From Heptranchias perlo (taxonomy: Eukaryota), in contig NC_090364.1 of NCBI RefSeq assembly GCF_035084215.1, positions 4,216,001 to 4,280,000 of the forward strand: a stretch of DNA of 64,000 bases, written 5' to 3'. The notes beneath the pieces are model-generated. The model worked only from the letters and a program-made list of their open reading frames with translations. It had not been told where the DNA came from and did no database searches. Below are positions 33,345 through 38,198 of this stretch, piece by piece (position 1 is the stretch's first letter; every line of letters starts with the position of its first letter). The translations under genes and the position numbers were made by a program.

Positions 33345-36300
33345 TTAACTGCTCTCCCCCAGGGTGTGCTTGTCAAACAGGTACTCGCCCATACCATTCT
33401 CAGGGGCTCCCAGTCTCTTCAAGTTGGTGATGTGATCTCCAAGTTTCTTAATGGCCTCAACTTGCTCGTTCAAGTAGTTTGTTTCCAGGAATTCGCATAG
33501 CTGAAATAGGAAGAGAATGCACTGTAGAAAAGTCTCTTCATATCGCAACTTACTTAACGCAAAAGGGGAAACTCAAGATCTAGTTCCAAAACCACTTACA
33601 GGCACTGCTGATAGAATTAGAGTTACCAGACCCAATTCATTTATATTATCTTGTAGATTAGTGAAACAAATTTCAAGTCAGGACATTTCCACACATCAGT
33701 CAAATAGATCTTGGTCACCAGATCATGCCGCCTAAATAAAAGACCCTCCGAGATCTCTGCGCTCCTCCAATTCTGGCCTCTTGCGCATCCCCGATTGCTT
33801 TTCGCTCCACCATTGGCGGCCGTGCCTTCAGCTGCCTGGGCCCTAAGCTCTGGAATTCCCCCCTAAATCTCATCACCTCTCTCCCACCTTTAAGACACTC
33901 CTTAAAACCTGCCTTTCATCCTAATGTCTCCTCATGTGGCTCAGTGTCAAAATTTTGTTTGCTAATCGCTCCTGTGAAGCACCTTGGGTCGTTTTACTAC
34001 GTTAAAGGTGCTATATAAATGCAAATTGCTGCAGTTTGCTCACATGGGAATCAAATGTCCACATTTTAAGTTTGTTTCTCTTTTGTAGGAGAGCTATAAA
34101 CATGAATTGATCACTGGTGAAATGCTCCACTGGAGACGTTTCTTGTTGCACTTTAACCAGCAGTAACAAGGGGCAAGACATCATGATCCCGATTTCAGGC
34201 CAAGACCAGAGAGGGATTTCCTGATGGCTACAAATCAGTCTGAAGGGTTTGGATTCATGATATTCACTGCCCAGCGTTTAATGCAGGGTCACTAATGTAG
34301 CACTGGCTTTTTAAAATTGCAGGGAGGTGGGGTTTCTGCTGGGTCTCTGCCATTTCTGGGTGGAACTTTTGTCTGCCTTTTACAAAGTAAATGATGGGCA
34401 GGTTCCATAAGTTCCCCTTCGTGATCCGCCGTCAATCATGGACATTTTAATAATCCTTATCCTCCCAGGATGAGCAAAACCGGATAGAGTCATAAACTTT
34501 GCTCCTCGTTAAGATGCTCCCCTTCTAAGTTTAATCATAGAATCATACAGCGCAGAAGGAGGCCATTTGGCCCATTGTGCCTCTTTGAAAGAGCTATCCA
34601 AATAGTCCCACTGTCCCTGCGCTTTCCCCATAGCCCTGCAAATTTCTCCTTTTCAAGTATTTATCCAATTCCCTTTTGAAAGTTACTACTGAATCTGCTT
34701 CCACCGCCCTTTCAGGCAGTGCATTCCAGATCATAACAACTCGCTGTGTAAAAAAAATTCTCTTAATTCCCCCCCCTGTACTTTTTTTGCCAATTATCTT
34801 AAATCTGTGTCCTCTGGTTACCGACCCTCCTGCCACTGGAAACAGTTTCTCCTTATTTACTCTATCAAAATCCCTCATAATTTTGTACACCTCTATTAAA
34901 TTAACCCTTAACCTTCTCTGCTCTCACGGAAAATAAATTTAAACATCAAGATAAGCCAATTCAGGATGGCCAAGATTTGGTGAGGTTTGCACACTTACAT
35001 TGGGATCGTTCTTTTCGGTAGCCAGTTTGTGCAGGTCCAGCAGACATTGGTTAACATCCTTCTCCAGCTGCAGAGCACACTCCATAGCCTCCAAACCATT
35101 GCCCCATTCGTCCTGGTTAGGTTTCTAAAAATACAGACAGCTGGTTCATTGGAGTTGAAGAAAATTTCTCAACGTTGGGGAGAGGGGAGGGTGGAAAGAG
35201 AAAGAAAGGACTACGGAGAGATATTTTCCCTCCCACTAACCTTGATATCCCACAGGATGATGCGGCCTCCGCGACGGTTCTGAAACTTCATCAGCTTCTC
35301 AGCGTGTTCTTGTTCCTCAACTGACTGCTCCATATAAAACTTTGCAAAGTTTCTCAGAGCAACATCATCCCGGTCAAAGTAGTATGACTGAAACAGAAAA
35401 GAGCAATGTGTGAAGACAGTATCATACAAGTCACACACCATCCTGACATGGACATACATCACCGTTCCTTCATCGTCGCTGTGTCAACAACCTAGAATTC
35501 CCTACCTAACACCACTGTGGGCGCACCATCACCACAAGGACGTCAGTGATTCAAGAAGGCCCACCACCATCTTCTCAGCGCAACTAATTATGAACAGGTG
35601 TCAGCCTTGGCACAGTAGGTAGCACTTTCCCCTCTGAGTCAGAAGCTTGTGGGTTCAAGTCCCACTCTAGGGAGTTTTGACACCCAAGTGCAGTACTGAG
35701 GGAGTGCTGCACTGTCAGAAGTGCCGTCTTTCGAATGAGACATTAAACCGAGGCCCCGTCTGCCCTCTCAAATGGACTTAAAAGATCCCATGGCACAATT
35801 TCAAAAAAAGAATAGGGCAGTTCTCCCTGGTGTCCTGACCAATATTTATCCCTCAACCAACAACACTAAAATAAACCCAGATTATCTGGTCATTATCTCA
35901 TTGATGTTAGTGGGATCTTACTGTGTGCAAATTGGCTGCCACGTTTCCATTACAACAGTGACTACACTTCAAAAAGAACTTCATTGGCTGTGAAGTGCTT
36001 TGGGACGTCCTGAGGTTGTGAAAAGAGTTATATAAATGCAAGTTCTTTCTTTAATAAATGGTCCACATTTATAATGGAAACTACCAATGTAAACTTGTCA
36101 CCCTGCAATTACACCCTCCCACCACTGGAGGCCCTGCAGCACCTCCACTGGCTGGAGGGTGTAATTACAATATGAAAAGTTTACATAGGTAGTTTTCATT
36201 ACAAACAGGGCATTGAAATTTATAAAGACGAAACTTAACAGGCAGTGTGAGTTGATGTAATGTTTTTAATATAAATTTGTTGAGTTTATATCTATTCGTA

Positions 36301-38198
36301 TAACTTCCAATTCCAATCCCAACTATACTTACGTTCTGTACTTGCTTAAAAACTGTTAATCTCTAGTATCTTCCTGTTCTTATGAAAGGTCATCGAGTTG
36401 AAACACTAACTCTGTTTCTCTCTCCACAGATGATGCCTGACCTGCTGAGTGTTATCCAGCATTTCCTGTTTTTATTTCAGATTTCCAGCATCCGCAGTAT
36501 TTTGCTTTTGTTTTATATTTATTGTTCCCTTTTTCAAAAAGCTGGTGGACTTAGTCTCAACCATTCTTGAGGAGAGTCTGCTCTCTATATTTTTTTAGTG
36601 GCTTCTAATCTTCAGCCTCATTTAAAGCTGTTTAATTTAAAACCAATATCCTATTCTGTGCTTATTCTAAATCAATTAACATACATTTTACTTTTGGGTT
36701 TGTAAGAGGATATGGTGGGTTGTGGGGGGGAATGCACTAGGACTGTATAAGGGATTGTGCTGGGACTGTGAGGGGTGTGTTGAATTGTGAGGGGATGTGC
36801 TGGGATTGTGTAAGGGGATGTGCTGGGATTGTGTGAGATGTGCTGGGATTGTGCGGGGGGGATGTGCTGGGATTGTGCGAGGGGATGTGCTGGGATTATG
36901 GGAGGGGACGTGCTGGGATTGTGCGAGGGGACGTGCTGGGATTGTGCGAGGGGACGTGCTGGGATTGTGCGAGGGGACGTGCTGGGATTGTGCGAGGGGA
37001 CGTGCTGGGATTGTGTGAGGGGATGTGCTGGGACTGTGCGAGGGGATGTGCTGGGATTATGAGGGGATGAGCTGGGATTGTGTGAGGGGATGTGCTGGGA
37101 TTGTGAGAGAGGATGTGCTGGGATTGTGTGAGGGGATGTGCTGGGATTGTGCGAGGGGATGTGCTGGGATTGTGACGGGGGATGTGCTGGGATTGTGTGA
37201 GGGGACGTGCTGGGATTGTGGGAGGGGATGTGCTGGGATTGTGCGAGGGGACGTGCTGGGATTGTGTGAGGGGATGTGCTGGGATTGTGTGAGGGGATGT
37301 GCTGGGATTGTGCGAGGGGGATGTGCTGGGATTGTGTGAGGGGATGTGCTGGGATTGTGCGAGGGGATGTGCTGGGATTGTGCGAGGGGATGTGCTGGGA
37401 TTGTGTGAGGGGATGTGCTGGGATTGTGTGAGGGGATGTGCTGGGATTGTGCGAGGGGGATGTGCTGGGATTGTGTGAGGGGATGTGCTGGGATTGTGTG
37501 AGGGGATGTGCTGGGATTGTGTGAGGGGATGTGCTGGGATTGTGTGAGGGGATGTGCTGGGATTGTGTGAGGGGATGTGCTGGGATTGTGCGAGGGGGAT
37601 GTGCTGGGATTGTGTGAGGGGATGTGCTGGGATTGTGCGAGGGGGATGTGCTGGGATTGTGCGAGGGGGATGTGCTGGGATTGTGCGAGGGGATGTGCTG
37701 GGATTGTGCGAGGGGATGTGCTGGGATTGTGCGAGGGGGATGTGCTGGGATTGTGTGGGGGGATGTGCTGGGATTGTGTGAGGGGATGTGCTGGGATTGT
37801 GCGAGGGGGATGTGCTGGGATTGTGTGAGGGGATGTGCTGGGATTGTGTGAGGGGGATGTGCTGGGATTGTGTGAGGGGGATGTGCTGGGATTGTGTGAG
37901 GGGATGTGCTGGGATTGTGTGAGGCTGCTTCCACTCTCACCATGGACAGGTACACGTAGGAGGCAGTGAGCTCCTGGTTGATCTGGGCGTTGATTGCATC
38001 CTCGCATTCATTCGGATAGTTCTGGCGCCCCTGACTCTGGCCTCCTCGCTGGCCCTGCCGTCCTCTCCTGATTTGTAGCTGCCGCCCGGCGGCGGCACAC
38101 AGCAGCGGGCCGGCCCTGCCCTTCAGGCGGTACAGTTGGCAGCGGCTCGGCTGCAGGCCCAATAACAGACCCGGTAACAGGCCCCACAGGCTCCCCAT
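33345..38198 (-). CDS. FtC: ferritin with a 52-aa N-terminal targeting-like leader (putative mitochondrial or secreted ferritin), 228 aa
   Basis: Exons 38198-37941, 35387-35241, 35124-34999, 33500-33345, all [74 protein letters not shown]...HTLGESS*. All seven ferroxidase residues present. AATAAA at 33021-33016. Confidence 0.9.
34533..34925 (-). mobile_element. CR1 LINE 3' fragment in FtC intron 3
   Basis: ORF 34594-34890 is the RT C-terminus; tail at about 34535. Confidence 0.9.
35598..36050 (+). mobile_element. Deu-domain SINE in FtC intron 1
   Basis: Near full-length copy of the 30933 family. Confidence 0.78.
36790..37924. repeat. 23-24-bp G-rich minisatellite in FtC intron 1
   Basis: Unit gggattgtg[t/c]gaggggatgtgct; starts about 17 bp from the exon-1 donor. 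Confidence 0.97.

Follow-up and report, generated by a model that had tools for sequence, protein, structure and literature searches.

Mammalian mitochondrial ferritin (FtMt, gene FTMT) is, in the passages available from six papers, the product of an intronless gene that lacks an iron-responsive element (IRE), encodes a leader of ~60 amino acids, and was probably retroposed from the heavy-chain gene FtH (PMC11719527, PMC8395497, PMC13207978, PMC8393899, PMC13010531, PMC4118045). The same passages know mitochondrial ferritin from mammals, Drosophila, and plants only, with the restriction stated in two of the papers, and one of them assigns the Drosophila and plant forms a different phylogenetic origin (PMC8393899). 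The locus described here is a ferritin gene on the minus strand of a 64,000-nucleotide stretch of the genome of the shark Heptranchias perlo (contig NC_090364.1, positions 4,216,001 to 4,280,000; hereafter the window, with positions counted from its first letter). As far as sequence can tell, this gene quite probably represents an elasmobranch-wide, intron-containing mitochondrial ferritin that arose independently of FTMT, with both import and cleavage predicted.

The gene consists of four exons with GT donors and AG acceptors throughout, in phase with those of the neighboring ferritin genes, which together give an open frame of 228 amino acids (Table 1). An identical 228-amino-acid protein exists in RefSeq/NCBI under the name "ferritin heavy chain-like [Heptranchias perlo]", indicating that the annotation pipeline built the same model without giving it a special name. 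The product is a member of the ferritin family (PF00210), having the four-helix bundle, the E helix, and a complete set of ferroxidase ligands (E27, Y34, E61, E62, H65, E107, and Q141 in H-chain numbering). AlphaFold returns a ferritin bundle with high confidence in helices A–C and no structure for residues 1–57 or 203–228; the leader is unstructured, with a predicted local distance difference test (pLDDT) score under 50. The closest structures to the model are H ferritins and frog M ferritins, and the ESM Atlas returned a single row at 0.77, under its lead threshold.

An earlier note on this DNA had claimed that exon 1 encodes 86 amino acids, that Gly stands in place of the ancestral start Met, that the next Met is the last codon of exon 1, that a TAG at 38348–38346 bounds the frame upstream, that the ferroxidase ligands are intact, that a leader of 52 amino acids holds 8 Arg and 1 Lys with no Asp or Glu, and that there is no IRE. 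Its factual statements all checked out: exon reconstruction, residue counts, Rfam scans, and the alignment of Gly53 with the Met of the neighboring copies agree with it, and the next in-frame Met after the start is residue 86. The start codon at 38198 is flanked by C at –3 and G at +4. As the first in-frame Met after it is residue 86, the leader is obligatory, and leaky scanning could not yield a cytosolic form. Four runs from a single study, presumed to be RNA, contain 93–100% of 41 words taken from 37941–38420. Cover of exon 1 was absent in those four runs over 37918–39600; the data are filtered, so this absence is uninformative.

When the leader DNA was shuffled 20,000 times by dinucleotides, 0.25% of the trials were open, free of Asp and Glu, and carried at least nine Arg or Lys residues; the other two reading frames of the same DNA have three and four Asp/Glu. 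The leader DNA has a single match in the 3.25-Gb genome and a single full-length match among at least 140 exon-1 matches. No donor was found in six neighboring ferritin 5' regions or elsewhere in the genome, and its absence from the neighboring 5' regions fits a new coding use of CpG-island DNA. A protein search with the leader alone gave the protein itself as the sole match among 290 candidates. The phi-x-x-phi-phi patterns of the Leu-rich block correspond to a Tom20-type motif.

A search with the full-length protein, considered for the best 120 of 2009 matches, gave leader-bearing ferritins from 12 further elasmobranch species, and cluster look-ups gave seven more. Predicted leader-bearing orthologues in 19 shark and ray species beyond Heptranchias are new here, and the 20 species in total include squalomorph and galeomorph sharks, sawfish, electric ray, stingrays, mantas, and skates. 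Exon-skipping and chimeric isoform models (P0025, P0122, P0301, P0319, P0323, P0324, P0326) were left out, and the Rhinoraja protein, a 275-amino-acid model, was taken to start at its Met50. All 20 leaders start with M[GA][SR], and none of the 20 proteins keeps the canonical Met; an additional leader Met occurs in Hypanus only (residue 21), and Rhinoraja has one Met inside helix A. The leaders are 22–58 amino acids long and, with each counted one residue short, have 140 Arg/Lys versus 4 Asp/Glu among 919 residues. In 18 of the 19 orthologues the leader aligns to that of Heptranchias better than its own shuffles do (p ≤ 0.012). All 20 proteins have the same seven ferroxidase ligands, and 16/20 carry R-[GA]-x-[QH]-G shortly before the mature part. 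The earlier note had proposed following the leader frame across chondrichthyans, and it is open and Arg-rich in all 20 orthologues. A frame kept open from one fixed ATG through many indels, from sharks to rays, is on these comparisons no annotation accident. No leader-bearing copy from Callorhinchus or Heterodontus is among the matches listed.

Some of the models left out are of interest in their own right. The Pristis models P0326 and P0301 have alternative first exons spliced to exon 2 and are without the leader and helix A. The Rhinoraja models P0323 and P0324 join exons 1 and 2 of the leader gene to L-like exons 3 and 4 and would be a targeted hybrid if real.

The relation to FTMT was addressed with trees of the mature domains only, one of 70 rows with invertebrate outgroups that included 13 leader ferritins and four FTMT rows, and a second rooted on lamprey after removal of 20 long or redundant rows. 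The leader ferritins are monophyletic in both trees (support 100/100 and 100/99), FTMT is nested within the amniote H chains (100/99 in both), and the H chains of sharks and chimaera fall with the other H chains. A joint clade of leader ferritins and FTMT is rejected by approximately unbiased (AU) tests (p 0.0016 and 0.0047), so that independent origin survives the check on such a grouping. The Heptranchias leader has no similarity to any of three FTMT leaders (p 0.40–0.84). The sister group of the leader ferritins is the expanded shark array at 89/81 in one tree, with no resolution in the other. Of the tandem duplication route that the earlier note had put forward, the position in the cluster stands, and the tree gives no resolved sister group to go with it; local duplication within the ferritin cluster is a plausible origin given this position. 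The central proposal, a mitochondrial-type leader gained independently of FTMT, is supported by a leader that is open and Arg-rich in 20/20 and by the rejected FTMT grouping, with localization still a prediction. It is fairly likely that these proteins are a true shark and ray mitochondrial ferritin that originated independently of FTMT through extension of exon 1 in a locally duplicated, intron-containing gene and that was kept since the shark–batoid ancestor. It would be the first in non-mammalian vertebrates and probably older than FTMT.

The targeting class of the leaders was judged with simple home-made features and few controls, namely three FTMT rows and three signal-peptide-like invertebrate ferritin leaders picked by eye. 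Net charge over the first 30 amino acids is +2 to +6 in the 20 leaders, compared with +3 to +4 in FTMT and –1 to –4 in the signal-like leaders. The best 10-residue hydropathy is 1.09–2.00 in the 20 leaders, 1.51–1.95 in FTMT, and 2.61–3.20 in the signal-like leaders; in this respect the shark and ray leaders agree with FTMT and not with the signal-like set.

Several observations weigh against a mitochondrial ferritin of independent origin. The first 18 residues of the Heptranchias leader are uncharged, and its moment over the first 30 amino acids (4.5) is the lowest of the set, making it the weakest amphipathic example. Gly (18%) and Pro (11%) are abundant in the leaders and Ser/Thr (6%) scarce, a composition less typical of presequences and in part attributable to GC-rich DNA. 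Of 13 leaders, only one has a classical R-3 site. Read-through of FTH1 5' untranslated regions, as in ten mis-extended models, is likewise Arg-rich, but with one to four Asp/Glu each. The Narcine leader (22 amino acids) does not align significantly better than shuffles (p 0.058), all orthologues are pipeline predictions that are able to copy one another, and for Pristis there are, in addition, models in which the leader exon is skipped. A clade of the leader ferritins with all H chains is not rejected by the AU test (p 0.28).

These features bear on a set of other explanations. The leader could be translated and conserved without being a matrix signal, serving as an uncleaved, basic, disordered tail of a cytosolic or nuclear ferritin that binds nucleic acid or membranes, or as a weak signal with dual localization. 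Such a tail would account for Gly/Pro-rich leaders without a predicted helix, for lengths that vary from 22 to 58 amino acids, and for the missing R-3 site in 12 of 13. It is nevertheless rather unlikely, given that Asp and Glu are almost wholly excluded, that Arg far outnumbers Lys, and that the hydrophobic N-terminal start is conserved, all features that import selects for; fast change and length variation are also normal for presequences as established knowledge has it. Another explanation, which the earlier note had raised, takes the Leu-rich block as an endoplasmic reticulum (ER) signal peptide and the remainder as a basic propeptide with an RRGR convertase site, so that the product would be a secreted or yolk ferritin as in insects and some other invertebrates. 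Residues 4–15 are indeed uncharged and Leu-rich in Heptranchias, Cetorhinus, and S. canicula, and the Heptranchias copy has lost its N-x-S sequon. However, in five orectolobiform sequences (the whale-shark/bamboo-shark group) Arg at 11/13 interrupts the block, in Narcine and Leucoraja the block is shortened, and the conserved, uninterrupted hydrophobic h-region of a secreted ferritin is not found across the orthologues. All 20 leaders are less hydrophobic than each of the three signal-like controls. There is also no conserved convertase site, with R-x-x-R near the junction in 3/20 and the furin consensus in 1/20, and ER targeting appears very unlikely. The loss of the sequon itself holds in the window, where NQC replaces the NQS of the five other exon-3 copies, but fails as a family trait: N-x-S is kept in 12/20 orthologues, which makes its loss uninformative and not diagnostic. 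Sequon loss and RRGR were both dropped as markers, neither being conserved in orthologues.

Two further explanations were considered. The protein might be mitochondrial without being independent, if an old intron-containing gene supplied the mRNA that was the parent of mammalian FTMT. The two share a leader class, the ligands, and the lack of an IRE, and R63 is replaced in both (by Q in 19/20 leader ferritins and by T in seal FTMT). Shared ancestry is highly improbable all the same: FTMT falls inside amniote FTH1, the joint clade is rejected twice, the leaders cannot be aligned, and no such protein from outside the elasmobranchs is among the best 120, 120, and 150 matches listed. That the leader is an annotation artifact or the gene a decayed copy, with GC-rich promoter DNA read as coding by gene finders, is barely credible. 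The leader does lie inside a CpG island, spurious Arg-rich extensions occur in many mammalian FTH1 models, and the array has broken copies, one of them at 39.4–39.5 kb, but 20 species have the same start with a frame open despite many indels, an intact core, and no alternative Met.

The regulatory setting also distinguishes this gene from its neighbors. A CpG island is found at one of the six ferritin starts in the window, that of the leader gene (observed/expected 1.22, GC 65%), with values of 0.12–0.74 at the others. The upstream region contains matches to YY1-like, CCAAT, and GC-box motifs, which do not by themselves imply function. Several upstream ATGs are present, and all of their frames close at or before 38302, at least 100 nucleotides ahead of ATG 38198. 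The 5' peptides of the Pristis and Rhinoraja models match parts of this DNA, with E values in the window of 5e-4 and 6e-3; the region is therefore conserved to rays, and some transcripts may start above several of the ATGs. Rfam gives no IRE up to E 10 in 37900–38800; the sole IRE of the window, at 27490–27525 (+), lies ahead of the neighboring gene at 27594. On the plus strand, contigs from three of the four runs match 38526–38683, end exactly at a CAG/GTGAGT donor, and then continue elsewhere. The likely source is a divergent, spliced transcript that arises from the shared CpG island, and the stretch is possibly a first, non-coding exon belonging to the gene at 41259.

Established knowledge of import and of FtMt allows a mechanism to be proposed for the leader ferritin. 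The leader would be recognized by the TOM/TIM23 route, and matrix cleavage of the precursor would fall close to the conserved R-[GA]-x-[QH]-G motif. The resulting subunit of ~180 amino acids would assemble into a 24-mer that oxidizes and stores matrix Fe(II). The lack of an IRE would uncouple synthesis from control by iron regulatory proteins (IRPs) and leave it to be set by a housekeeping-type CpG-island promoter, with the upstream open reading frames perhaps damping it. As for the origin, a duplication in the ferritin cluster before the shark–ray split may have been followed by the gain of an ATG in the GC-rich DNA upstream and the disappearance of the original Met.

If true, this would be a second, separate vertebrate origin of mitochondrial ferritin besides the mammalian one. 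Selection would then have arrived at matrix iron storage by two vertebrate routes, retroposition in the mammalian case and, in the shark and ray case, a local duplication in which an exon was extended. This would correct the view of mitochondrial ferritin as limited to mammals, Drosophila, and plants. The mouse FtMt knock-out is mild, and the shark and ray proteins would offer a natural comparison for the role of FtMt. They would also provide an example, open to dating, of promoter-proximal DNA giving rise to a targeting signal. Genes of this subfamily are already in RefSeq under generic names only. Literature searches, in which subscription journals were mostly not covered and supplements not included, found no report of a shark or ray mitochondrial ferritin.

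Table 1. Features of the leader ferritin gene and its upstream region in the window
Feature	Position	Strand	Remarks
Exon 1	37941..38198	-	86 amino acids: leader and helix A; GT donor next at 37940
Exon 2	35241..35387	-	49 amino acids; helix B, E61, E62, H65
Exon 3	34999..35124	-	42 amino acids; helix C, E107; NQC instead of NQS
Exon 4	33345..33500	-	51 amino acids and stop; helices D and E, Q141
Leader, predicted mitochondrial presequence	38043..38198	-	52 amino acids, 8 Arg and 1 Lys, no Asp/Glu
Leu-rich block, residues 4–15	38154..38189	-	phi-x-x-phi-phi patterns; moderately hydrophobic; in orthologues interrupted or too weak to act as a signal peptide
R-[GA]-x-[QH]-G motif, residues 45–49	38052..38066	-	candidate processing site
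Gly53 codon	38040..38042	-	occupies the canonical start Met position
In-frame TAG	38346..38348	-	closes the frame upstream of ATG 38198
CpG-island, TATA-less promoter region	38199..38550	-	upstream of ATG 38198; motif matches, function not implied
YY1-like ATGGCG motifs, five	38538, 38477, 38439, 38378, 38322	-	sequence match
CCAAT, three	38352, 38324, 38295	-	sequence match
GC box	38346	-	sequence match
AATAAA, likely poly(A) signal	33016..33021	-	further ATTAAA starts at 33100
23-bp minisatellite, 51 copies	36751..37924		within intron 1; incidental

The leader gene lies in a ferritin cluster whose order in the window is an L-like gene from ~1810, the IRE gene at 27594, the leader gene, a broken exon at 39.4 kb, a plus-strand gene at 41259, and a long array. 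The L-like ferritin (1710–1811 on the minus strand, and locus L022 at 3100–9130) has an altered ferroxidase region and is closest to a Callorhinchus "lower subunit-like" protein. The gene at 27490–29257 (+) is the only ferritin in the window with an IRE; in the trees it falls outside the H clade, together with shark and ray copies present once per species. The broken exon 1 at 39415–39510 (–) has frameshifts and no start Met, and the divergent ferritin at 41259–45137 (+), with a changed helix B ligand region, was unplaced in both trees. Genome-wide, the expansion comes to at least 140 exon-1 matches, with ~70 on contig C43 (~4.21–4.78 Mb) and others on C38 (~9.6–17.7 Mb), C725, and C1048. Protein clusters of up to 138 members in Pristiophorus suggest similar expansions in other sharks, and a literature search for such a shark ferritin expansion found no paper matching all search terms. 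GYS- and Bcl-2-family genes lie 3.4–4 Mb off, a contig-scale synteny that is too loose and was not used. Long low-complexity tandem repeats occupy 7032–10120 and 36751–37924, the former with open frames of ~990 codons in three minus-strand frames.

Other ferritins came up among the matches. Invertebrate-type proteins with basic, acid-poor leaders (P0148, P0165, P0160, and P0187/P0288, one of them from the slug Arion vulgaris) are possibly a further unreported mitochondrial ferritin lineage; P0148, P0165, and P0288 cluster together at 97/89. Two vertebrate-like ferritins under bacterial names (P0068 and P0312) are probably host contamination.

Compared with known systems, the shark gene resembles mammalian FTMT in its Arg-rich leader (50–63 amino acids in the FTMT rows examined), full ferroxidase center, and lack of an IRE (PMC8393899). 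It differs in having three introns where FTMT has none, in lying outside the FTH1 lineage that gave FTMT, in an unrelated leader, and in its place in a tandem ferritin cluster; it is known from sequence, with localization predicted. Residues diverge as well, with D131 replaced by Glu and H136 by Asn, each in 19/20 leader ferritins. Of the features expected of an FTMT orthologue, a basic, acid-poor leader and the lack of an IRE are thus present, and an intronless gene and descent within FTH1 are not. Signal-peptide ferritins of insects and other invertebrates likewise carry an N-terminal extension, to judge from the passages of two papers (PMC8395497, PMC13207978), but the three such leaders measured have a net acidic charge and much higher hydrophobicity. 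The cytosolic H- and M-type ferritins of fish, amphibians, and the neighboring shark copies share the exon structure, fold, and ligands, and differ in their canonical Met start (19/19 other loci examined) and, for the neighbor at 27.6 kb, in having an IRE. The Drosophila and plant mitochondrial ferritins are, like the shark protein, organelle-targeted ferritins of separate origins; the shark protein is set apart from them as a vertebrate-type ferritin, 73–79% identical to vertebrate H and M chains.

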